The notes beneath the pieces were generated by a model. The model saw only the letters and a program-made list of their open reading frames with translations. It searched no databases and was not told where the DNA came from. From contig CACYWH010000012.1 in NCBI GenBank assembly GCA_902778125.1, positions 1-60,047 of the forward strand: a stretch of 60,047 nt of DNA, written 5' to 3'. This stretch comes from an uncultured Erysipelotrichaceae bacterium (GTDB lineage Bacteria; Bacillota_I; Bacilli_A; RF39; UBA660). Of the stretch, positions 1-12,311 are shown piece after piece. Within the stretch, counting starts at the first letter, position 1. The number at the start of each line of letters is the position of its first letter. The translations under genes and the position numbers were made by a program.

Positions 1-540
1 TATTTCTTCCTGAGTAAATATATGTGCTGGATCTCCACATACTACTTCATATCTTGGAATATGTACTTTTTCAGCAGGATTTTCATTTATAAAATTAACC
101 GAATAACATGCATATCTTAATGAACCTTTAACTACTTTCATAATGTTTTTTAAATACCATTTAGATAAATTCTTTTCTACAAATATTTTATTAATAAATT
201 CTTGTAACATTTGAGAATCAATTTGCCATAGTGCATATCTTCCTAACATAGGTTTTAAGTATAGCTTAATAATATTTAAATATGTAACAATAGTTGAATA
301 TTTTAAATTAAAATTACAATAAGTATCAATCCAGTAATCTAAATAATCTGAATATGACATATCTTTATTTTTTCTTACTCTTCCTATCTTATAATATTCT
401 GTATAATCTAATGCACCTTGATTTAATGCATCTTGTCTTGTTGGAAATCCTGATTTAGATATCCATTTTCTTGTGCCATCAACTGAAGCTGTTTCAAATC
501 GGTATTCATATACCTTTCCACGTTTTCTTACGCTTACCAT
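1..540 (-). CDS. Tyrosine recombinase/integrase, N-terminal part (runs off the window start); absent from the ORF track
   Basis: Hand translation from ATG at 540 (RBS AAGGAG): MVSVRKRGKVYEYRFETASVDGTRKWISKSGF...YSDYLDYW...NPAEKVHIPR. Open to base 1 and clearly paralogous to the 7346..7885 integrase N-terminus (arm-binding and core-binding regions). Confidence 0.9.
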   Translation of the reverse strand, partial: MVSVRKRGKVYEYRFETASVDGTRKWISKSGFPTRQDALNQGALDYTEYYKIGRVRKNKDMSYSDYLDYWIDTYCNFNLKYSTIVTYLNIIKLYLKPMLGRYALWQIDSQMLQEFINKIFVEKNLSKWYLKNIMKVVKGSLRYACYSVNFINENPAEKVHIPRYEVVCGDPAHIFTQEEI

Positions 541-578
541 TTTTATACTCTCCTTTTCTAAAATTGGTTCTTTATAAA

Positions 579-697
579 TTGTCCACAAAACGTGTACTAA
601 ATTTCAAAGCATTTTTTGTCCTGTTGTCCACAATTTTAAATTTACGTGGACAAAATGTGGACAAACGGCAATTTTCGGTCAATTTTTACGTGGACAA
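579..697. repeat. Cluster of TTGTCCAC/GTGGACAA repeats, probable arm-type integrase binding sites of element 3
   Basis: TTGTCCACA at 579-587 and 624-632, TTGTCC at 616-621, GTGGACAA at 646-653, 657-664 and 690-697, lying between a secA-tail copy and the integrase start. Confidence 0.6.
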
Positions 698-724
698 AAT
701 CCTCGCAAACCCTTATATTTCCTA

Positions 725-769
725 CTACTTACCACAGCATTGTTTGTATTTTTTCCCTGAGCCACATGG
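725..769 (-). repeat. Displaced, recoded copy of the secA 3' end (PCGSGKKYKQCCGK*); att junction
   Basis: Minus strand reads CCA TGT GGC TCA GGG AAA AAA TAC AAA CAA TGC TGT GGT AAG TAG, matching the secA SEC-C tail at 8050-8094 at the protein level. Similarity stops upstream of the CATGTGG core. Confidence 0.9.
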
Positions 770-926
770 TAAAATATTAAAACAACCATGTAATTTTTTC
801 CTTTTAAGTTGGTATTTTTTATTTTAAATTTATAATTTTTTATTCGCTTATTGTAAGTTTTTTTCGTAGAACTTATCTAATAGCTTATCTAAAAAAATCC
901 AATTAAATAAATCAAAATATTGCGAA

Positions 927-1658
927 CTATTTATTATCACTAATCATTTTCTTTTTAAATGTAATAATTGACAAGAAAATAACTGTTATGAAATAAATTA
1001 AAAATACTATTATATGAAGAAGTGTTAAATTACTAAAATCATTATGTAACGTTCCTTGAATTATAGTTAAACACGCTTCAAATGGTAATGATTTACATAT
1101 AACTTCAAATACTCCACCCATTACTTCTTTAGGAAAATACATGCCACTTGTAAAGCATACTAATTGAACAACTATACTTCCTAATCCACCTGTTCCTTTT
1201 TCACTAACTAAACTACCTATTAATATACCTAATGATATAAAGAAAATAGAAATAATCATTGATACTAATATAGTTGGTATTATACTAATTGTAAATTCTA
1301 ACCCCATAGCAATTGCAGTTATAAAGAATAAAACATTTTGAATTAGTACTATAGGTAGTAATGATAATATATATCCTAAAATATAATCACTTGATTTCAT
1401 TGGAGAAGTTCCAAGTCTAATTAATAACGAAGAAGTTCTATCCTTTGCAATTAATGTAGCAGTAAACATTGTAATAAATGAAAATCCAAATAGAATTATA
1501 GACGGTGTGAAGTTTTCTAATCTATAATTTTCTGCAGGAATATTAAATTGTTGAAATATAAATAATAAGAATAATGGTAATACAATTTCGAAAATTAAGC
1601 TTAATGGATCTCTTATTAATTCTTTAAAATTTCTTTTAGCAAAATTAATCATTCTCAT
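927..1658 (-). CDS. ABC-2 type exporter permease
   Basis: About six hydrophobic segments, RNFKELIRDP N-terminus and SGMYFP motif typical of ABC-2 permeases; overlaps the ATPase stop. Confidence 0.9.
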   Translation of the reverse strand: MRMINFAKRNFKELIRDPLSLIFEIVLPLFLLFIFQQFNIPAENYRLENFTPSIILFGFSFITMFTATLIAKDRTSSLLIRLGTSPMKSSDYILGYILSLLPIVLIQNVLFFITAIAMGLEFTISIIPTILVSMIISIFFISLGILIGSLVSEKGTGGLGSIVVQLVCFTSGMYFPKEVMGGVFEVICKSLPFEACLTIIQGTLHNDFSNLTLLHIIVFLIYFITVIFLSIITFKKKMISDNK

Positions 1659-2380
1659 TATAATTCACCTCCAGTTGCAATAGATACAAAAGCATCTTCA
1701 AAGTTTTTAGCTTTAGTCTTTTTTATTAACTCCTGTGAAGTTCCAATATCTATTAACTTACCATTTGCCATTATGCCGATTCTATCTGATAAACTTTCTG
1801 CTTCTTCCATATAATGAGTTGTTAAAATAATTGTTATTTTACCCTTTAATGAATTAATAATTTTCCATAGTTCTTTTCTTGCTATAACATCTAATCCTAA
1901 TGTTGGTTCATCTAAAAATAATATTTTTGGATCATTTATCAAACTTATTGCAATAGATACTTTTCTTTGCCATCCACCAGATAGAGTTTTTGATTTTTTG
2001 TTTAAAACTTCATCAAGTTTAAATTGTTTAATAAGTTCATCAATCTTTTTTTCTTTATCTTTTATTTGATATACCCCAGCCATAAATTCCAAATTTTCTT
2101 TTACTGTTAAATTTGGAGCAATGGCAGTTTCTTGTGGTGATACATTTAAGATTTCTTTTATTTTAAATACGTCTTTTTTCATATTCATATTTTCTATTAT
2201 TATCTCACCAGAAGTTGGAAGTATTAAACCCGATAACATCTTAATTGTAGTTGTTTTTCCAGCTCCATTTACTCCTAAAAGTGCAAATAGTTCTCCTTGT
2301 TTAATATTTAAATCTATTTCATTTACTGCAATTTTATCTTTAAACTTTTTAGTTAATTTCTTTGTTTCAATAGAATACAT
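1658..2380 (-). CDS. ABC exporter ATP-binding protein (DrrA/multidrug-like)
   Basis: Walker A GVNGAGKT, signature LSGG, Walker B LFLDEPT, H-loop TTHYMEEAE. Confidence 0.95.
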   Translation of the reverse strand: MYSIETKKLTKKFKDKIAVNEIDLNIKQGELFALLGVNGAGKTTTIKMLSGLILPTSGEIIIENMNMKKDVFKIKEILNVSPQETAIAPNLTVKENLEFMAGVYQIKDKEKKIDELIKQFKLDEVLNKKSKTLSGGWQRKVSIAISLINDPKILFLDEPTLGLDVIARKELWKIINSLKGKITIILTTHYMEEAESLSDRIGIMANGKLIDIGTSQELIKKTKAKNFEDAFVSIATGGEL

Positions 2381-2381
2381 A

Positions 2382-2510
2382 TTATTTATTATCTGGCATT
2401 ATTTTATCCATAGTATCTTCTAATACTTCAGATTTAACAATAGCCATTCCTTTCTTTACTATTTGTCCTTTTTCTCCAACTTTAGCAATACCTACAAACT
2501 TATCTTTCAT
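2382..2510 (-). pseudogene. AbrB/MazE-family regulator with probable internal in-frame deletion (42 aa); absent from the ORF track
   Basis: MKDKFVGIAKVGEKGQIV-KKGMAIVKSEVLEDTMDKIMPDNK*, GGAGG RBS. The KVGEKGQIV motif is AbrB-like but the usual following IPKxxR...GD segment is missing. Confidence 0.7.
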
Positions 2511-2523
2511 ATATGCCTCCTTC

Positions 2524-2582
2524 AAGTATAACTAATTATACTTTTCATACTTAATTATACACTTATTATTCTTAAAAGTAAA
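2524..2582 (-). promoter_or_regulatory. SigA-like promoter with a downstream palindromic operator for the abrB-ABC operon
   Basis: -35 TTTACT (2577-2582), 17 bp, -10 TATAAT (2554-2559); inverted repeat AAGTATAA-4-TTATACTT at 2524-2543. Confidence 0.5.
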
Positions 2583-2710
2583 CACATTATGAGATTGTAA
2601 TATATTTATTTTACAATCCAAAAAAAATGTTCCAAATTGATAAAAAAACTTATCTAAAACTTATCTAGAAGCCTTTTTTTATGAAAAATTACTTAAAAAT
2701 TGTAAGTAGC

Positions 2711-2752
2711 AAAAAGCTCGCAAGCCCTTTATTTATAAGGCTTTGCGAGCTT
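2711..2752 (-). terminator. Rho-independent terminator directly after the secA-tail copy
   Basis: Minus strand GCTCGCAAAGCC-loop-GGGCTTGCGAGC followed by TTTTT. Confidence 0.7.
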
Positions 2753-2795
2753 ATTTACCACAACACTGTTTATACTTGCGTCCACTCCCACATGC
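2751..2795 (-). repeat. Displaced, recoded copy of the secA 3' end (ACGSGRKYKQCCGK*); att junction
   Basis: Minus strand reads GCA TGT GGG AGT GGA CGC AAG TAT AAA CAG TGT TGT GGT AAA TAA, the same peptide as the secA tail from the Cys onward with different codons. Confidence 0.9.
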
Positions 2796-3085
2796 TCATG
2801 CACTTTTAGTATATATAGTACATATAGTATTATCGTTATTATTGTTATTTCAAGCATTTGTGGATTTGGTAATATTTAGTACATATAATTTTTTGGAAAC
2901 AAAATGGAAACATTGTTTTCATTCGTTCACTAACCTATATCATTAATTTATTAATGTTATGGCCAAAGAATTAATTTCTCTCACCTATATAAATAATATC
3001 ATAAATATGTTAAAAGGACAAGAAAGATAACATAAAAAGGCAGATTATCATCCACCTTTATTTCGGAATGTCTTAATCTTCCAAT

Positions 3086-4015
3086 CTAATCTATTTTTAA
3101 TTTAAATGAATACCAAGCAGTTCCACGATCACATATTGTATCAATTAACACTACATATTCCCCTTTTAAATTAGGAACTGTAAAATTATTTTTTTCATAA
3201 GTAATAGGAATATCTACTTTTTCATATTTTGAATCATAAAAGGTAATTCTAGTTATAGTTAAATCACTAGAGGAATCTAGAGCAATAATATCCTCTTTAT
3301 TACTTGGCAAATATTCATCATAATTAATATCTTCTAAAGGAATTGACAAGCCACATGAACTTGCTTTATCTTCTCCTTTAGTATCAGTAATACAATATGA
3401 GCCAATTTGTGTAAGAGTTCTATCTTTACCATTAATTACCCACAAATTTCTTGGTGTTGGATTAAATACTTCAACATCCCAAGTAAATAGCCAAAAGCCA
3501 AATTTAATATTAATACTATTACTTAATGGCTCATTAGGTGAAATTCTTACTTCTTTTTTCATTTTATAACCAAATCCCAAATAAGTATAATTATTTCCAT
3601 TTTCACGAATTGGTATCATAAACAATGGATTTTCATTATGCCTTACACGATTATAATCAGTCCAAAATGTATAAATAAAGAACAATAGCAGGAAAGCAAC
3701 TACAGATATAATTATAATTCTTTTAATTTTTTTAATTCTATTTGTAGAATATTTTATTGTATTATTTAATACTTCATCAGTTTTTTCTTTTAATTCACTT
3801 TCTTTTATTCTTTCACCACTCAATAATTCATTTAAGGATATATCAAGTATTTCACATAGCGGTTTATAAAAGACTATATCTGGCATTCTTCTACCATTTT
3901 CCCAGTTACCAATAGCTCGATCTGTTACATTTAATTTATCTGCAAGTTCTTGTTGTGTCATCTTTTTTTCTTTACGAATTTTAGCAATAAATTTTCCAAT
4001 TTTTTCTTGATTCAT
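3086..4015 (-). CDS. Membrane-anchored XRE-family HTH regulator with extracellular C-terminal domains
   Basis: TQQELADKLNVTDRAIGNWENG HTH, one TM helix around aa 100-118, then a ~190-aa soluble region. Confidence 0.85.
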   Translation of the reverse strand: MNQEKIGKFIAKIRKEKKMTQQELADKLNVTDRAIGNWENGRRMPDIVFYKPLCEILDISLNELLSGERIKESELKEKTDEVLNNTIKYSTNRIKKIKRIIIISVVAFLLLFFIYTFWTDYNRVRHNENPLFMIPIRENGNNYTYLGFGYKMKKEVRISPNEPLSNSINIKFGFWLFTWDVEVFNPTPRNLWVINGKDRTLTQIGSYCITDTKGEDKASSCGLSIPLEDINYDEYLPSNKEDIIALDSSSDLTITRITFYDSKYEKVDIPITYEKNNFTVPNLKGEYVVLIDTICDRGTAWYSFKLKID

Positions 4016-4154
4016 AGTTTTTGCTCCTTTCGTATTTAATTATAGATTGCATTTCTAAAAAAGTATCCAAACAATCCGTAGGGTTTCATATATCTATATT
4101 TTATCACAAAAAAAGAGAATTCTTTAATTCTCCTAATAACCATTATTTGAATAG

Positions 4155-4877
4155 TTATTTTTCATATAACAATACTGATTTATTTATATATTCATCTAGT
4201 TGCTTTTTTGATATGTTTTTAATATTATTTATATTTGAATCAATATAATATATTTTTATTTTCTTAATCTCTTTGTCGTTGATAGTTATGGGATAGTATC
4301 TATAACTATTTCCGTTATAAATAGATTTCTTAACTATTTCATTATAAGAACATTTAGAATTCAAAAATATAATCTCATAATCATTATCATCCATTATAGA
4401 GTATTGATTAATGTTGCCACTATAGACGGTACATAAATCTTTTGTGGTAAAAAATAATTGATTATCTCTTTCTTCAACATACATCCTATTTTCATCATAG
4501 TTTAAAATTACTTTATGATTTCCAACAAGTATTAATGTTAAAACAACAATAACTATTATTGATACTAAAACAATAATTGTTCTTCTTATTCGTGTAATTT
4601 TAGTATTTACATTTGATATAACGGAAAAAACATTTTCTTCTAACTTTTCTTGGTATGAATTTTTTTCTACCTTTTCACCACTTAACAAATCATTTATTGT
4701 AATATTTAATTCATTACACAACGGTTTAAAAAAAGATACATCAGGAAAATTCTTACCATTTTCCCAATTTGATATAGCTCTATCTGTTACACCTAATTTT
4801 TCAGCTAATTCACTTTGAGTAATTTTATTATCTTTACGACATTTAGCTATAAACTTTCCTATTTTAATTTGATCCAT
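4155..4877 (-). CDS. Membrane-anchored XRE-family HTH regulator
   Basis: TQSELAEKLGVTDRAISNWENG HTH, TM helix IIVLVSIIVIVVLTLILV, unrelated C-terminal domain. Confidence 0.85.
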   Translation of the reverse strand: MDQIKIGKFIAKCRKDNKITQSELAEKLGVTDRAISNWENGKNFPDVSFFKPLCNELNITINDLLSGEKVEKNSYQEKLEENVFSVISNVNTKITRIRRTIIVLVSIIVIVVLTLILVGNHKVILNYDENRMYVEERDNQLFFTTKDLCTVYSGNINQYSIMDDNDYEIIFLNSKCSYNEIVKKSIYNGNSYRYYPITINDKEIKKIKIYYIDSNINNIKNISKKQLDEYINKSVLLYEK

Positions 4878-5021
4878 TTTATTTCTCCTTTCTAGATTTA
4901 GAATACTATGGCTTATAAAAAAATAACACGAAGTGTTGCTTGAGTTTTTAATATTATTATTTTATCACAAAAAAAGCAGATTTTTTTCATCTGCTTGATT
5001 ATTAATTTTATAAGAATTCTA

Positions 5022-5342
5022 CTATGAAACCCATGACCACAGTCTTATTCCATAGAATAAATAAAATTCTTTCCCCATAACCTTAACCATTTTATTATCG
5101 TCTGAAGAATCTTCTGACATATAATACTTTACTTTTATTTTATAGCCAAGGCTAAAATATTCAAAATCTATTTCTTCACCAGGTTCTAAACATGATATAC
5201 AATATTTTGTCCTATCCAAAACTATTAATGGTTTACTACTATCATTAATTTTTAATCTTATACTTTCTTCTGTAATAAATAAAGCAAATATTCCTATAAT
5301 TACTATTAATATTATTCTTATTATTTTAAATACTTTCTTCAT
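5022..5342 (-). CDS. Small N-terminally anchored exported protein (paralog of 24832..25161)
   Basis: Basic N-terminus plus hydrophobic helix; the EESIRL...PLIVLD...C and SLGY...EFYLF...LW pattern is shared with 24832..25161. Confidence 0.75.
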   Translation of the reverse strand: MKKVFKIIRIILIVIIGIFALFITEESIRLKINDSSKPLIVLDRTKYCISCLEPGEEIDFEYFSLGYKIKVKYYMSEDSSDDNKMVKVMGKEFYLFYGIRLWSWVS

Positions 5343-5353
5343 CTAAACACCTT

Positions 5354-6529
5354 TTATTTCTTTATTAATACATCAGGATAGTCATCAGCAATTTTATCAG
5401 CTGATATTAAATTGGTTTCTAATGCAGACTTAAGAGTCATAACCTTATTATCAATCATAAACTTAATCATTACTTTATCACTCTTAATGCAATTTAAATA
5501 GTATTTATGTCCATTATTTTCATAGATTTGTTCTAATGCTGTATCACAAGTTTCGCCTGGATCAGAATAGTCTAAAATGCTATAAAAAATATAATCTGTT
5601 TCATTCTCAATTATTTTTCTCAAATCTGTTCCATTTGATATTGAATAATAACAACTATTTATACTTTCTGGTAGAATTCTCTTTCCATCACCCCATACTT
5701 GTATCGTGTCAATTAGTTTTTTATCATCATACATTTTAAACTCAAATCCATGTCCATCACTTAAACAATATTCACCATATCTGTTGGCACTTGATATTGC
5801 ATTTAATATTTCCTTTATTTTATTCGAATCTTTTATTACACCTAATTCTTTATCACCAGCATTAATTATTATTTTATTAGTTTTATCTATTTTTTTAATA
5901 ATATTGGATGGTATAGATTTACTTTGTTTTTCACTATTATTAGTTACACATTTATTAGTTAAGTCTTCCATATCAATATCGTTATTTTCAGTATGAACAT
6001 AAATAATAGGAATTACTGGGCTTGAGAATGTTTGGTATGTAGTAAACCTTTTACTAAAGTATTCATCAAAAACATTCATTACTTCTGATTCATAAGTTCC
6101 ATTTTTAGGGAAAATAATAAAATACATATTGTCTTTATGTTTACTAGCATATTTACCTTTAAATATATCAATTTTATCTTTATTAACATTTTTTATTTCA
6201 GATAATTGTATTTCAATTAAATCATCTTGTTCTGTTACTAAATATCCACCTAATTCATTTTCTAAACAAGATACAAGTTTATTCATGTCTTGTTCTGCTT
6301 CAACATAGGTATTTATTTCTCCGGCAACATGAAATCCTAGTATTTTAAGTTCCCATCCGTCTTCATATCCAGTTGATGAGGTCTGACTTATTCTGTGTAT
6401 TTTAGTATATTTATATAAAACAGCTTTATATTCTGTAGATCCTCCATCCCATAATCTGTCTTTAATTGGAATAAGCATTAAGATAAAAATTGCAATTATA
6501 ACAATAATAATTATTTTTTTCTTTTTCAT
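5354..6529 (-). CDS. Exported or membrane-anchored multi-domain hypothetical protein
   Basis: 391-aa ORF with GGAGG RBS, KKKK plus hydrophobic anchor, DGGSTEY motif and several Cys residues. Confidence 0.8.
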   Translation of the reverse strand: MKKKKIIIIVIIAIFILMLIPIKDRLWDGGSTEYKAVLYKYTKIHRISQTSSTGYEDGWELKILGFHVAGEINTYVEAEQDMNKLVSCLENELGGYLVTEQDDLIEIQLSEIKNVNKDKIDIFKGKYASKHKDNMYFIIFPKNGTYESEVMNVFDEYFSKRFTTYQTFSSPVIPIIYVHTENNDIDMEDLTNKCVTNNSEKQSKSIPSNIIKKIDKTNKIIINAGDKELGVIKDSNKIKEILNAISSANRYGEYCLSDGHGFEFKMYDDKKLIDTIQVWGDGKRILPESINSCYYSISNGTDLRKIIENETDYIFYSILDYSDPGETCDTALEQIYENNGHKYYLNCIKSDKVMIKFMIDNKVMTLKSALETNLISADKIADDYPDVLIKK

Positions 6530-6653
6530 AGTTCCTCCTATATCTTTATTATACTACATAATTATTAAATATTATCATCAACTTAAATTATCGTAATATT
6601 ACTATTTTCTGATGTTAGTAAAAGCATCTATTTTCCGAACAACTATTTTCATA

Positions 6654-7885
6654 TTATCTTTTATTTACGAGATTGATTGTCTTATCAAATAATTCAACTA
6701 CCTTTTTTTTATCATTGTTATTACTTGTTATATAATATCTTTCAGTAGTTTCTATTCTTTTATGTCCTAATACTTCAGCTATATCTTTTATTTCACAACC
6801 ATTTCTTAAACTAATTGTTGCGAAACTTCCTCTTAGATCATAAAATCTACAATTTAAACCTAGCTCGTGATGAATTATTTTAAATGGATATTTTGATATA
6901 TCTGTCCCTGAATATGTTCCATTTTTTCTAGTAAAAACCATATTTGCATTATTACATTTTGATTTACCTTCAGCTATTTTATATTCAACTATTTTTCCGT
7001 ATTTATTCTTTATTGTTTTTAAATAATATGCTTTATACTTTTTTCCATAATACTTTTTATTTTTATTTTGCAATTCTTTATAATCACATAACAATCTATA
7101 TAAAGAATCACATATGTATACTTCTCTTAAACTACCTTCAGTTTTGGTAGTTCCTAAATACCATCTGCCATTATTATCTTTATCTTTTGCATATACTGTT
7201 TTATTTATTTTAATAATTCTTTTTTCTAAATCTATATCATTCCAAGTAAGAGCAAATACCTCACCAGTTCGCATTCCTGTATAACATGATAGTAAAAATG
7301 AACATATAAATACCTTGTTTTTCTTAAATCTTTCTAAAATAACACTTATTTCTTCACTTGTATATACATGTCTTGCATCGTTTTTTTTGACTCAAAACTT
7401 AATACTCTAGGTATAGATAATTCGGCTGCTGGATTATACTTAATAAATCCAAAATAATATGTTGCATCTCTTAAAGAACTTTTAATAACTTTTTGATAAT
7501 TTCTAAGGGCTTCCTTTGTTGATGATTTTTGTGCTAATTTTAGAACTGCCTGATTCAATATATAAGATGTTATACTGTGAAGTTTATACTTTCCAAGCAC
7601 TTCTTTTAAACTACCAAAAGTTTCTGAATATCTTCTTGCAGTTGTATATTTATAATTAATCTTAAAATAGTTTTCCATCCAATAATCTAAATAATCCGCA
7701 TATAACATGTTTGCTTTATTATTAATTCCTCCGTGAACATAATCATCATAAGCCATTTGACCTGCAATATATGCTTCTTTCTTTGTTTTAAAACCTGACT
7801 TATTCATAAATTTCCTTTTACCATTTATTCTTCCAATTTCAAATTGAAATTGATATACTTTACCCCTTTTTCTGACATTTATCAT
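6654..7885 (-). pseudogene. Tyrosine integrase split by a frameshift at an A8 run (7381-7388)
   Basis: ORF 7346..7885 encodes the arm/core domains and ORF 6654..7274 the catalytic domain (GMRTGE, YDLR, LGH, TTERYY). One extra A in the run gives a continuous ...SKKNDARHVYTSEEI...YTGMRTGE frame. Confidence 0.85.
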
Positions 7886-8049
7886 TTTATCATTCCTTTC
7901 TATTATATTATTACATATTTTTAATCAAAGAAAAAATGTTTGCACATTTTTTTACAAACATTTCCTTATTTTACTAGTATTTTTATTTTTTTTGCAAACA
8001 AATTATAAATTGGATAACTTTCTAAAATCTCTCAAAGCCTTATATTTTC

Positions 8050-10539
8050 TTACTTTCCACAGCATTGTTTATATTTACGACCCGAACCACATGGACAAGG
8101 ATCATTTCTACCTATCTTTTTATCTGTTTTTTTAGGTTTAGACTTTACTCCTTCTTTTCCATCATTAGTTCTTATATTTTTTACTTCTTCTCTTTGTGTA
8201 TTTTGTCTAACTTCAGCATTCAATAAATATGAAGATATCTCGGCGCTTATATTTGCTAACATGTTATCAAACATTTGGAATCCTTCTAATGCATAAACCT
8301 GAAGTGGATTACTTTGGGCATAACCACGAAGTCCAACACCTTCTTTTAATTCTTCCATTGCATCTAATTGATCCATCCAATATTTATCAATTATTCTAAG
8401 TGATATAGATTTTTCAAAATCATTTTGTATCTCTTCTGGTATATCTTTAAGTTTATTATTATAATCATCTACTACTATATTATATAAATGTTCACTTAAT
8501 TCTACAGTATCTTTATCTTTAAAATCATCTTTAGTAAGTTTTCTTTTCTTAAGTAAATTATTATTAAATTGTTCCATAATATTGTTAATATCATTATCAG
8601 TTAATACCTTTTCAGTTAAATGAGCATTAATTTGGTTATTAACAAAATCTTTAAATGTTGAAAGTACTCTATCACGAATACTATCTTGATCTAATATTTC
8701 ATTACGTCTTTCATAAATAATTTCTCTTTGTTTAGAAATAACATTATCATAATCAAGTAATGCTTTTCTTCTATCAAAGTTAAAACCTTCAACTTTCTTT
8801 TGAGCAGATTCTATACTATTAGAAATAAATTTATTTGATATTGCTTGGTCCTCTTTAATACCTAAATTAACCATTACAGCTTTCATTCTTTCAGAGCCAA
8901 ACTTAACCATTAGATCATCTTCCATTGATACAAAGAATCTAGTTGTACCTGGATCTCCTTGACGACCTGCTCTACCACGAAGTTGGTTATCTATACGTCT
9001 AGAATCATGTCTTTCAGTTCCTATTACAAATAATCCACCTAATTCAGCAACTCCTTCACCAAGTTTAATATCAGTTCCACGTCCTGCCATATTTGTTGCT
9101 ATAGTAACAGCACCTTTTTTACCAGCGCCTTCAATTATATGTGCTTCTCTTTCATGATTCTTTGCATTTAATAATTCATGTTTAATTCCAGCTTTTGTTA
9201 ATAATTGACTCACAAGTTCACTAGTTTCTACTGATGCAACACCAACTAGTACTGGTCTACCAGTTGAATGTATTTCTTTAACTGTTCTAACTACTGCTTT
9301 AAATTTACCATTTAAAGATGGATATATTAAATCAACTTGATCATCACGAATAACTGGTTTATTTGTAGGGATACATACAACGTATGTATTATAAATATTT
9401 TGGAATTCTTCTTCTTCAGTTTTTGCTGTACCAGTCATACCTGATAATTTATTATACATTCTAAATAAATTTTGGAATGTTATTGTAGCAAGAGTTTTTG
9501 TTTCTTCGTTAATAGTAACATTTTCTTTAGCTTCTAATGCTTGATGTAATCCTTCACTAAATTGACGACCATACATAAGTCTACCAGTAAATGTATCTAC
9601 AATAATTACTTTATCATTTTCAACTACATAATCAACATCTTTTTTAAATGCATAATTAGCTGAAAGTGCCTTATCTAAATTATGTACCATAACACTATTT
9701 TTAATGTCAAATAAATTATCCAAATTTAAAAGTCTCTCTGCATGATGTACACCTTCTTCAGTTAAAGTAACTTTCTTAGTTTTTTCATCTAATACATAAT
9801 CATCTATTTTAAGTGCCTTAGCCACTCTATCTGCTTCTTTATAAACATTTGCAGTTTTAGCAATTCCACCAGAAATAATAAGAGGTGTTCTTGCTTCATC
9901 AATTAAAATTGAATCCACTTCATCTATTATTGCAAAATTAAGTCCTCGTTGAGTTCTATTTTCTTTATGTACAACCATATTATCTCTTAGATAATCAAAT
10001 CCAAGTTCATTATTAGTTGTATATGTTATATCAGCATTATACGCTTCTTGTTTTTCTTTAGGACTCTTATCACGAATATTTATACCAACTGTAACACCAA
10101 GTAAATCATATATTGGTCCCATCCATTCTGCATTACGAGTTGATAAGTATTCGTTAGTTGTAATTACATGTACTCCTTTACCTTCAAGAGCATTTAAATA
10201 AGCAGGTAATACTGTAGTTAATGTTTTACCTTCACCAGTTTTCATTTCAGCAATATTACCACGATGTATTGCAACTCCACCTATTAATTGAACTCTAAAT
10301 GGTTTTTCTCCTATAGCACGAAAACAAGCTTCACGTGCAAGTGCAAATGCTTCTGGAAGAATATCATCTAAAGTTTCACCATCTTGTATTCTTTTTTTAA
10401 ATTCTTCTGTTTTAGCTTTAAATTCAACATCTTTTAATTTTTGCATGTCTTCATCCAAAGCTTCTATTTTATCAACTATTTTATTTATTCTTTTTAATTC
10501 TTTAGTTTCATAATCAAATAAATTCTTAAATAAGCCCAT
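8050..10539 (-). CDS. secA: Preprotein translocase ATPase SecA
   Basis: EMKTGEGKT, IIDEVDS, ATNMAGRGTDI, RRIDNQLRGRAGRQGDPG and C-terminal SEC-C GRNDPCPCGSGRKYKQCC. Confidence 0.99.
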   Translation of the reverse strand: MGLFKNLFDYETKELKRINKIVDKIEALDEDMQKLKDVEFKAKTEEFKKRIQDGETLDDILPEAFALAREACFRAIGEKPFRVQLIGGVAIHRGNIAEMKTGEGKTLTTVLPAYLNALEGKGVHVITTNEYLSTRNAEWMGPIYDLLGVTVGINIRDKSPKEKQEAYNADITYTTNNELGFDYLRDNMVVHKENRTQRGLNFAIIDEVDSILIDEARTPLIISGGIAKTANVYKEADRVAKALKIDDYVLDEKTKKVTLTEEGVHHAERLLNLDNLFDIKNSVMVHNLDKALSANYAFKKDVDYVVENDKVIIVDTFTGRLMYGRQFSEGLHQALEAKENVTINEETKTLATITFQNLFRMYNKLSGMTGTAKTEEEEFQNIYNTYVVCIPTNKPVIRDDQVDLIYPSLNGKFKAVVRTVKEIHSTGRPVLVGVASVETSELVSQLLTKAGIKHELLNAKNHEREAHIIEGAGKKGAVTIATNMAGRGTDIKLGEGVAELGGLFVIGTERHDSRRIDNQLRGRAGRQGDPGTTRFFVSMEDDLMVKFGSERMKAVMVNLGIKEDQAISNKFISNSIESAQKKVEGFNFDRRKALLDYDNVISKQREIIYERRNEILDQDSIRDRVLSTFKDFVNNQINAHLTEKVLTDNDINNIMEQFNNNLLKKRKLTKDDFKDKDTVELSEHLYNIVVDDYNNKLKDIPEEIQNDFEKSISLRIIDKYWMDQLDAMEELKEGVGLRGYAQSNPLQVYALEGFQMFDNMLANISAEISSYLLNAEVRQNTQREEVKNIRTNDGKEGVKSKPKKTDKKIGRNDPCPCGSGRKYKQCCGK

Positions 10540-10614
10540 ATCATCATCTCCATATCAATTATTATAACAAAGAAAAAAAGAAAAGTGAATATTTTCACTT
10601 TTCAAACTAAATTA

Positions 10615-11145
10615 CTAATTAGCTTCGATTACTCCATAATCTCCATCATGTCTCTTATAAACAACATTAATTTTATTTGTATCAACATTTTTAAATACAA
10701 AGAATGTGTGTCCTAATAGTTCCATTTGAGTTATAGCTTCTTCTTCATCAATTGGTTTTAAGAAAACTTCTTTTCTTCTTACAATTGTTTGATTATCTTC
10801 TTCAAAATAATCTTCTATTTCCATATCAGGAACTGCATCAGCAACTTTTGATTTTTTACTAGTAATTTTATCTTTATATCTTCTAAATTGTTTTTCTAAT
10901 TTATCAACCACTAAGTCTATAGCAGCATATAAGTCTTCATTTACCTCTTCAGCTCTTACATTATATTTACCACTCCAAATAGTAACTTCTACTTTTTGAT
11001 CTTTTCCTTTAGCAGAAATTAATGCTTTAGCTTCCATTTCATCATTATCGTCTAAGTATTTAGTAACCCTCTCTAATTTACTTTTAATGTAATCATTAAT
11101 AGCATCAGTAACTTTTAATTTGTCACCACGGATATTATATTTCAT
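10615..11145 (-). CDS. hpf: Ribosome hibernation promoting factor (long HPF)
   Basis: DLYAAIDLVVDKLEKQ, EEAITQMELLGH, VVYKRHDGDYG; canonical position upstream of secA. Confidence 0.95.
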   Translation of the reverse strand: MKYNIRGDKLKVTDAINDYIKSKLERVTKYLDDNDEMEAKALISAKGKDQKVEVTIWSGKYNVRAEEVNEDLYAAIDLVVDKLEKQFRRYKDKITSKKSKVADAVPDMEIEDYFEEDNQTIVRRKEVFLKPIDEEEAITQMELLGHTFFVFKNVDTNKINVVYKRHDGDYGVIEAN

Positions 11146-11238
11146 ATCATCCCTCCTAATACTAGATTATCATATTTTCTATATTTATTCTACAATTACA
11201 CAAAAATTTGACAATTTAAAAATACACCGAAGTGTATT

Positions 11239-11460
11239 TTATACTCTAGTCATTTCAACTTCTTTAACATTGATAGCTTGATTTCCTTTAGCAGTTTCAA
11301 TAAGAGTAAATTCTACTATCTCGCCCTCTTTTAAAGATTTATAGCCTTCTTGTTCAATTGCAGAATAATGAACAAAGATGTCTTCATCTACTAGTCCTTC
11401 ATATTCGATAAATCCATATCCTTTTTCATTATTAAACCATTTAACACGACCTCTACTCAT
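11239..11460 (-). CDS. Cold shock domain protein
   Basis: [15 protein letters not shown] and DIFVHYSAI (RNP1/RNP2). Confidence 0.95.
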
Positions 11461-11702
11461 AACACACCTTCCCTTCTTGATTTAATAATAAACTACTTAT
11501 ATGTTGCGCGCAATTAAAATCATACCCAAAAATTCGACAATCTTCTTATTTTTGTTATAAAGTTATAATTATTTGTCATTAAAGAGATTGAGAGCATTAA
11601 ATCCATTATTTTTAAAAAATTAATGACATTATTTAAAATTATTATACAACTTATAATAATTTTGTATCCCGATATATTATTATCATAATTGAGGAAGAAA
11701 GA

Positions 11703-12311
11703 ATGAAAGAATTAGTAGTAAATAAAATAATGAATAATGTTAGTAAATATTATAATTATGACGATGTTAAACTTAAAGAAATAAAATACGGAATAGAGTC
11801 TATTTATCTTACTATTACTAAAACTATTGTTGTAATCATTATTTCATTATTATTAAATACTACTAAAGAATTAATGTGGTTTATGCTATTTTATGGATTA
11901 CTTCGAATCACTGCCTTTGGATTACATGCTAAAAAAGCATGGCATTGTTGGGTCCTTTCACTAACGTTATTTTCCTTAATACCTTATCTTATTAAAGTTT
12001 TAATTATTAATAAATATATTTCATTATCTTTATTTATCATATCAACTATTCTGTTTATTATATACGCACCAGCTGATACAGAAAAAAGGCCACTTATACA
12101 TAAAAGGAAAAGAATTATTTATAAAATAATTTCTATAATAATTTCTATAATATATATGACTATTAGTCGTTTTACAGGAAGTATTATTTCAAATTCATTA
12201 TTATTTGCAGAACTTATGCAAGTAATAATGATTCTCCCAATTAGCTATAACCTTTTAGGTCTTAAATATGACAATTATAAGAGTTATAGGTCGAAAGGAG
12301 GTAAAAAATGA
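11703..12311 (+). CDS. agrB: AgrB-family autoinducing peptide processing protease
   Basis: LRITAFGLHA..AWHC (catalytic His/Cys), YAPADTEKRP, multiple TM helices. Confidence 0.92.
   Translation: MKELVVNKIMNNVSKYYNYDDVKLKEIKYGIESIYLTITKTIVVIIISLLLNTTKELMWFMLFYGLLRITAFGLHAKKAWHCWVLSLTLFSLIPYLIKVLIINKYISLSLFIISTILFIIYAPADTEKRPLIHKRKRIIYKIISIIISIIYMTISRFTGSIISNSLLFAELMQVIMILPISYNLLGLKYDNYKSYRSKGGKK

Follow-up and report, generated by a model that had tools for sequence, protein, structure and literature searches.

Why does the 3' end of secA occur three times, in three different spellings, on one strand of a single contig? The question is raised by a stretch of 60,047 nucleotides (the window) from the 1,272,940-base genome, here called G000, of an uncultured Erysipelotrichaceae bacterium; the window begins at base 1 of its contig, and the sequencing runs that contain the stretch are, by their run records, ruminant-gut metagenomes. 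Our answer, which we hold with a probability of roughly 0.85, is that the SEC-C-encoding end of secA is the attachment site for phage-type tyrosine integrases carried on integrative elements of several sizes, which have gathered there by tandem, site-specific accretion. An earlier note on this DNA had proposed secA as an attB hotspot at which each newcomer supplies its own tail and pushes older elements downstream; units that vary among relatives, junctions at the core, adjoining integrases and up to eight intact tails all support that proposal.

The stack runs along the minus strand in the order secA, unit 1, unit 2, unit 3. secA itself (8050..10539) is an open reading frame (ORF) of 829 amino acids with Pfam matches to SecA_DEAD, P-loop_SecA, SecA_SW, SecA_PP_bind and SEC-C, and its last 14 codons are contributed by unit 1. 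Each of the three ends encodes CGSG(R/K)KYKQCCGK and a stop on the minus strand, as the earlier note had read them: tail 1 (8050..8094, crossover core CATGTGG at 8087-8093) would be the attL of unit 1, tail 2 (2751..2795, core at 2788-2794) both the attR of unit 1 and the left end of unit 2, and tail 3 (725..769, core at 762-768) the left end of unit 3; all were placed by alignment and pattern match, and tail 1 also by junctions in relatives. A degenerate peptide pattern, CGSG(K/R)KYKxCCG(K/R)-stop, matched the genome at exactly three sites, all on this contig and on its minus strand (728-766, 2754-2792 and 8053-8091); the reversed pattern, used as a control, had no match in the whole genome, and a looser protein-level search of the whole genome yielded no further tails. 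Compared in pairs over their 42 bases, the tails show 11, 9 and 14 substitutions, which alter 0, 1 and 1 residues, respectively, always between R and K; because nearly all the differences are synonymous, in line with the earlier note, each tail must have evolved while it was read as the end of SecA. The point at which similarity begins had likewise been placed correctly: CATGTGG is invariant in the three-way alignment, and the sequence 5' of this core is unalike. The post-stop motif AAGG(C/G)(T/C)TTG(A/C)GAG fared less well; it does stand after tails 1 and 3 but is not confined to them, since tail 2 has it too, where it makes up the 3' side of a strong hairpin terminator (-22.4 kcal/mol, z -4.8) that lies with its U run directly 3' of the tail (2708..2752, minus strand, by folding). 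No terminator hairpin was found after tails 1 and 3.

Tyrosine integrase genes adjoin two of the tails, as had been noticed. int1 follows tail 1, in two frames; int3 follows tail 3 (1..588, minus strand; ORF and Pfam), with only the N-terminal 196 codons present, cut by the contig start, and a probable start at the ATG at 540. Both match Arm-DNA-bind_4 (PF14657), Phage_int_SAM_3 (PF14659) and Phage_integrase (PF00589). The integrases form one family (N parts 41-98% identical), the tyrosine recombinase residues R, xxR, H and Y are conserved in the alignment, and the closest phage relatives are integrases of Paenibacillus phages at 35.5% identity. For a wider view of the family, the best 80 of 445 catalytic-domain relatives from a scan of one genome per species were taken as int1-type loci; their 77 source assemblies belong to uncultured gut Bacilli and 'Clostridium sp. 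CAG' bins. Upstream of the integrase, in the same orientation, 52 loci have secA (at 121-2399 bases) and a further 12 a tail copy; 6 show neither, and for 10 the upstream sequence is too short to judge. Leaving those 10 aside, secA or a tail copy adjoins the integrase in 64 of 70 loci of other species, an association that the earlier note had led one to expect.

These int1-type islets measure 2.8-10.6 kb and carry RhuM, KilA-N, Fic, protein kinases, AbiEi/AbiEii, AAA_21 ATPases, DUF4365, GNAT and TrpRS/TyrRS-like genes. At the secA site of three genus genomes (G011, G003 and G007) stands an element of ~18 kb with ParA/ParB, a sortase, a SpaA/thioester adhesin, a 2367-aa SNF2 protein and a Toprim/DUF3991 protein, which looks like an integrative and conjugative element (ICE); in G002, a second integrase with an excisionase-like HTH_17 ORF before it and a Mob_Pre relaxase after it belongs to what looks like an integrative and mobilizable element (IME).

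Relatives vary in the way that the earlier note had anticipated. The genus comparison set comprised 50 genomes, metagenome bins of 0.7-1.8 Mb; at least one tail match was found in 41, at least two in 19 and at least two on one contig and strand in 12, and the reversed pattern had no match in any of them. The largest count came from G044, with eight intact tails within 18.5 kb and a ninth with a Gly-to-Val change, separated into units of 1.1-4.1 kb. By contents the units differ from genome to genome, and three genomes (G016, G050 and G053) have a single tail followed by a plain terminator; degenerate distal tails were recognised with a tail profile in G044, G009, G057 and G058. The secA site is thus apparently empty in some genomes, occupied in others, and marked by scars in others again. 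The conserved gene block after the variable region begins with prfB, the usual neighbour of secA; in G000 prfB lies on another contig (C24), where 8.1 kb precede it and hold no tail.

The position of the junctions was equally informative, and the expectation that they would fall at the core was borne out, as they map to CC(A/T)TGTGG. The clearest case is the comparison of G041 with G055, whose secA genes are 96.8% identical: the two share the same sequence up to ..GATCC(A/G)TGTCC(A/T)TGTGG, diverge at the next base, are unrelated for 2.2 and 0.9 kb, respectively, and agree fully once more from CCATGTGG over a stretch of >700 bases. On alignment, this is a swap of units bounded on both sides by CC(A/T)TGTGG. 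Across 64 tail copies, one and the same right-arm family precedes different tails, and the sequences diverge right after TGTGG; conversely, the type of tail 3 is preceded by secA in G002 and G014, and by other units in G000 and G022. The CA before TGTGG is usual but not constant, so what the copies have in common as a core is C(A/T)TGTGG rather than CATGTGG in the strict sense. Horizontal spread is evident from G000 and G002, in which the last 850 bases of secA are 79.8% identical and the next 800 bases, from the core through int3, 93.4% identical; the element must therefore be much younger than the split of its hosts. At the protein level, int3 is 98% identical to the integrase that adjoins secA in G002.

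These junctions also bear on whether integration is needed at all. The extra tails could be local duplications or gene conversions of the secA end, or the ends of separate small SEC-C genes, a notion for which one could cite the 38-codon ORF that an arm of one type (type B) forms with the displaced tail behind it, with a start codon in 5 of 6 copies. Similarity to secA, however, is lacking 5' of the core, the tails adjoin integrases, their flanks fall into element-specific arm families, the units of close relatives differ exactly at the core, and variation within the small ORF is not biased to third positions; we regard such an origin as extremely unlikely. Still less weight attaches to an artefact of assembly or binning caused by the repeated tail. 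It is true that the secA contigs of 8 of 24 congeners end within ~435 bases of the 3' end of the gene and that the window itself starts inside int3, but breaks of this kind are expected where an assembly meets a variable repeat; the same architecture recurs in dozens of independent assemblies, and one contig of run X1 spans 3906-9096 without a difference, bridging secA, tail 1 and int1. Contigs of runs X5, X6 and X7 extend over unit 1, differ from it in 1-7 places and end at 8076-8115.

A three-domain tyrosine recombinase, direct repeats with a core that restore the gene end, and contents that vary among relatives with junctions at the core are the marks of an integrative element, and all are found at this locus. 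We therefore propose accretion by the following route. An element would carry its own site, consisting of a right arm, C(A/T)TGTGG, its own synonymous version of the last 13 codons and stop, and a left arm. Strands would be exchanged at the tail's 5' edge, presumably by integrases of the int1/int3 family; secA would thereby be joined to the tail of the newcomer, and the resident tail would be pushed downstream to become the boundary with the older unit. Repeated rounds would yield a co-oriented stack in which the unit next to secA probably arrived last, and displaced tails, which would no longer be translated, would be left to decay.

Several observations weigh against this account or limit it. 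Neither an excised circle nor an empty-site read was seen in the material available, assembled contigs with short, unreliable joints, and every genome compared is a metagenome bin. The swap between G041 and G055 fixes the position of an insertion, not its time or the genome in which it took place, and homologous recombination in the flanks would look alike. Directly after the secA stop, G016 exceeds G051 by ~2.9 kb, a stretch in which no second tail could be detected. int1 has a Y in place of the first H of HxxR. The genomes with the longest arrays (G044, G041, G052, G055 and G022) are without an integrase of the int1/int3 family, and therefore much of what is seen may be fossil; present-day mobility is something that we infer. 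Lastly, at the split in int1, which is considered below, length variants of A7, A9 and A10 would also fit an on/off switch at the level of DNA.

Accretion at the secA end has well-described counterparts at other genes. The element e14 and phage 21 integrate inside the 3' end of icd in Escherichia coli and supply a substitute end whose differences are mostly synonymous; the substitution of a gene end is the likeness to the present case, and a single prophage, another gene and another host are the differences. ICEs, IMEs and cis-mobilizable elements (CIMEs) accrete in tandem at the 3' ends of conserved genes, as do ICESt1 and ICESt3 at fda of Streptococcus thermophilus, according to the portion of a review that was available (PMC5704250). 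That portion describes features found again here: a tyrosine integrase acting at the 3' end of a housekeeping gene, a newcomer that enters the att site holding the gene end, and integrase-less units (CIMEs) that keep attL and attR and stand in tandem with intact ones (PMC5704250). The stacks described here differ in their target, secA, in repeats that are recoded and not identical, in the length of the arrays (8-9 tails) and in one integrase-less class with arms of its own. The genomic islands at ssrA of Dehalococcoides offer a second parallel; in the accessible part of their description (PMC3146451), tandem islands lie downstream of an essential single-copy gene and are bounded by repeats of its 3' end, the place of insertion is marked by a motif beside the repeat, and an integration module is missing from some islands. 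Those islands depend on a CcrB-like serine recombinase, an RNA gene and an identical 20-bp repeat, whereas a tyrosine integrase, a protein gene and synonymous tails are found at secA (PMC3146451, same part).

The earlier note did not recall secA as a commonly described target, and we found no description of it as such in the literature searched, which did not extend to subscription journals and supplements; the word secA has 0 occurrences in the available portion of PMC5704250. What is new is the target and the host group for a known mechanism, together with a conserved, predicted slip site in an integrase and a separate integrase-less class. The DNA that encodes the SEC-C zinc finger is nearly invariant and the gene is essential, and the secA end therefore has advantages like those of a tRNA gene, being always present, conserved across species and cheap to restore, which explains its broad use in poorly known gut bacteria with genomes of 1-1.5 Mb. 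With a cargo of Fic, RhuM, AbiE, kinases, ABC exporters and second leucyl- and tyrosyl-tRNA synthetases (LeuRS and TyrRS), the stacks become a compact record of exchanged genes.

Integrases are absent from a sizeable share of the units. Of 56 complete units bounded by two tails, 38 have an integrase and 18, of 0.9-4.1 kb, have none. Unit 2 of the window belongs to the latter: it has no integration or transfer genes, keeps both att sites, as a CIME would, and shows no similarity to an integrase beyond noise (769-2751, E<=10). With arm classes defined by simple regular expressions and a sample chosen in part by integrase, the type of left arm that unit 2 has, in which tail and hairpin are followed by a spacer with a TAGATA(A/C) doublet at its end, was found in 7 of the 18 integrase-less units and in 0 of the 38 integrase-bearing ones, and right arms of types B and C in integrase-less units only (9 of 9). 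The two ends of unit 2, of ~120-130 bases, are met again in other genomes, 80-90% identical and enclosing different cargo. Simple decay of an element of the int1 or int3 type would not account for arm types that are never found with an integrase, and at least a part of these units therefore forms a class of its own rather than wreckage of such elements.

How far this class resembles integron cassettes is a separate matter. The earlier note called the array integron-like, and for its look the term holds, as a co-oriented row of small units, often of one to few genes, lies between recombination sites and is entered at the proximal end; for the machinery it does not, as the integrase is an ordinary, incoming one of phage type and no IntI resides beside the array. 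The integrase scored 30.5 bits against the IntI model TIGR02249, with a cut-off of 265; the boundaries are coding tails instead of folded, attC-type hairpins, and the units bring their own terminators, as after tail 2, though no hairpin follows tails 1 and 3. It may nonetheless be asked whether the small integrase-less units are a dedicated cassette class with ends of their own, moved in trans by an integrase or host recombinase encoded elsewhere. The distribution and recurrence of their arms point that way, as does the array of G044, in which no integrase was found among 25 ORFs scanned and no remnant of one (best tblastn E 0.27), and in which all tails but one are intact. No recombinase, on the other hand, could be tied to these arms, and the genomes with such arrays hold, elsewhere, only two Xer-like recombinases and 0-2 unrelated tyrosine recombinases; the arm classes carry the bias of their definition noted above, units with terminators of their own are not promoterless cassettes read from one promoter, and the score against the integron-integrase model is low. 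We consider trans-mobilised cassettes unlikely, and continue with accretion by incoming integrases as the preferred reading.

int1 poses a problem of its own, because the gene is divided between two frames. The frame-0 part (7346..7885, minus strand; ORF and Pfam) encodes 179 amino acids with the arm- and core-binding domains. The frame changes at a run of eight A (A8; 7381..7388, T8 on the plus strand), and frame 0 stops 11 codons past the run; the -1 frame opens at A8, encodes ..NDARHVYTSEEI.. and aligns with intact relatives into the catalytic domain (R, YxxR, H, Y; 6654..7389, minus strand, by Pfam and alignment), of which the ORF as called covers 6654-7274. The two parts would be joined by a slip of -1 or by the addition of one A to the RNA.

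Taken at face value, a gene in two frames is a dead gene, with the frameshift at A8 as decay or as a sequencing error, and two related loci (L144 and L156) do have extra in-frame stops. The relatives speak strongly for a different interpretation. A8 with the catalytic frame at -1 is found in 64 of the 80 int1-type loci, with the same codon and frame relation and at 57-80% protein identity; the other 16 comprise A9 in frame (2), A7 (7), A10 (1), A8 with equal frames in partial matches (2), A8 with another frame relation (1), no run (1) and one half missing (2). In 33 aligned sequences the run is invariant and never interrupted by a G, even though the codons on either side vary; frame 0 stops within a few codons of it, and conservation in the -1 frame extends over the 39 codons from the run to the first Met. 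Purifying selection acts on both halves: among 300 random pairs of 58 loci, the median pN/pS (nonsynonymous over synonymous differences per site) is 0.22 for the N-terminal half and 0.35 for the C-terminal one, at pS near 0.5. Sequencing error is countered by the assembled contigs of four runs from four studies, which agree on the length of the run and contain no indel there; the joints of these contigs (~21 bases per side) are unreliable and were not used, and thin cover of parts of the stretch in some runs was not taken as evidence. We conclude that a dead int1 is very unlikely; conservation of the run and selection on both halves instead point to A8 as a conserved slip site.

Slippage at A8 would have a straightforward consequence. 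Translation in frame 0 would give the 179-aa DNA-binding protein, and a -1 slip on A8 would give the full recombinase; stuttering of RNA polymerase is the most likely source of the slip, a ribosomal slip being possible, and either would keep recombinase levels low. No consensus structure was predicted 3' of A8 by RNAalifold for the 33 sequences (0 pairs), which favours polymerase slippage or slipping that does not depend on structure. Reporter cassettes described in the main text of PMC3711429, as far as it was available, shifted frame at 10%, 40% and 63% with runs of 7, 9 and 11 A, respectively, so that a minority of full-length int1 is to be expected. In the window, secA with tail 1 has no terminator before int1, and tail 2 has a strong one; the interval between the secA stop and int1 (7886..8049, minus strand) is the left (P') arm of unit 1, assigned from relatives of the same arm type. 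secA transcription may thus run on into int1, and with read-through from a strongly expressed gene possible, a translational brake makes sense.

The run could, alternatively, act as a heritable phase switch at the level of DNA, off at A8 and on at A9, with no slip of polymerase or ribosome. Runs of 7, 9 and 10 do occur among species, and the frame relation tracks their length. Only 2 of the 80 loci would be 'on', however, the contigs of the four runs show no variation in length, and runs of 7 to 11 A slip at 10-63% in the reporters just cited; the two mechanisms can coexist. We treat a switch as a possible but doubtful explanation, and slippage at a conserved A8 as the preferred one.

Programmed slippage of this kind has precedents in the IS3/IS1-type OrfA-OrfAB pairs, dnaX and A-run slippage, for which the accessible parts of PMC1088944 and PMC3711429 describe an A-rich site, A_AAA_AAA, that also divides a DNA-binding N part from a catalytic C part. 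As in int1, the frame-0 stop follows shortly past the site, and a short and a long product are expected; the differences are that int1 is a tyrosine integrase and that no downstream RNA structure was found. No description of recoding in an integrase was found in the literature searched, from which supplements and subscription journals were left aside; the words 'integrase' and 'recombinase' are absent from the first 300,000 characters of a recoding review (PMC5009743) and from the available main text of PMC3711429. Through a conserved A8 slip, a site-specific integrase would carry its own simple brake on excision, and annotation pipelines will label such integrases pseudogenes and miss the boundaries of the elements.

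Two more ambitious readings can be linked: (a) that a cassette system of small-genome gut Bacilli takes in its units at the secA tail, and (b) that the int1 slip yields a pair of products like that of IS3. We think it improbable that both hold together. Were (a) true, integrase-less units with arms of their own (TAGATA doublets, B and C ends) would be captured and shuffled in trans, the cassettes would carry genes for defence, export and second-copy aminoacyl-tRNA synthetases, and an integron-like function would rest on a lambda-type integrase and on the end of an essential coding sequence. Were (b) true, the frame-0 protein would regulate or direct a rare full-length recombinase, and int1 would then be the first tyrosine integrase with recoding of this kind.

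The remaining features of the window are as follows. Unit 1 extends from 8094 down to 2796 (5.3 kb) and comprises tail 1, int1, four cargo genes and a right arm. The cargo (3086..6529, minus strand) consists of proteins of 391 and 106 amino acids without a family and two XRE helix-turn-helix (HTH) proteins with a membrane segment (4155-4877 and 3086-4015); the right (P) arm (2796..2900, minus strand), assigned to type A from arm families in relatives, is AT-rich and has ATAATACTATATGTAC-like repeats. No excisionase-like ORF was seen in unit 1 among its ORFs and Pfam matches. Unit 2 (2795 down to 770, 2.0 kb) has in its left arm a TAGATAAG doublet (2649..2667, minus strand), within an arm of ~120 bases that is the same in other genomes, then a cargo (927..2525, minus strand) of a 47-aa ORF, a DrrA-like ATPase of the ATP-binding cassette (ABC) type (1658-2380) and a DrrB-like ABC-2 permease (927-1658), and a right arm of type B (770..897, minus strand) with a second TAGATAAG doublet at 872-891. 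The motif TAGATAAG occurs 7 times in the window against 5.3 expected and is not enriched; only its paired placement at the ends of unit 2 is of note. PADLOC returned generic ATPase and HTH matches only for the cargo of the window, and in window positions 1-12000 no Rfam family and no tRNA was found, and promoter-like sites were no more frequent than in shuffled sequence.

In unit 3, three TTTGTCCAC repeats lie between tail 3 and int3 (646..698, minus strand); the window as a whole has 4 (0.4 would be expected), and these three are likely to be arm-type or operator sites. Neither the rest of int3 nor a fourth tail was found on other contigs of the genome; genes of the element in G002 match scattered contigs of G000, none of which continues unit 3. 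Between positions 568 and 569, between the int3 start and the upstream repeats, the contigs of all four runs have 32 extra bases, at a depth above that of the organism, and a common variant of the int3-type element therefore exists.

The type-B arm of unit 2 (window 770-830) reads in frame into tail 3, forming the 38-codon ORF MSKKAQFSSKKLHGCFN..PCGSGKKYKQCCGK. The same arm occurs in L051, L097, L098, L099 and L107; an ATG or TTG start is present in 5 of the 6 copies, and the copy in the window has none. As its variation is not biased to third positions, conservation at the DNA level is probable, and the idea of a real SEC-C peptide gene was set aside.

Elsewhere, the region 1,054,000-1,100,000 of G007:C1 holds a secA end and the ICE-like element full of stop codons, in a one-contig genome of 45% completeness; this reflects either heavy decay or a low-accuracy assembly. 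One int1-type locus (L116) has two such integrases in tandem (at 3887 and 8241), both with an A8 run, and two islets of one kind can therefore stack.

Aminoacyl-tRNA synthetase genes are recurrent cargo of units bounded by secA tails. LeuRS stands alone between two tails in G001 (L057, G001:C87, 342-2762), TyrRS lies in a unit of G018 (L056, G018:C12, 3949-5187), and in G044:C35 (6632-8221 and 4653-5933) a class II synthetase lies in a unit and a seryl-tRNA synthetase just after the last tail. The cargo LeuRS and TyrRS are second copies, 50% and 47% identical, respectively, to another copy in the same genome; divergent second copies of this kind are typical of inhibitor-insensitive spare synthetases.

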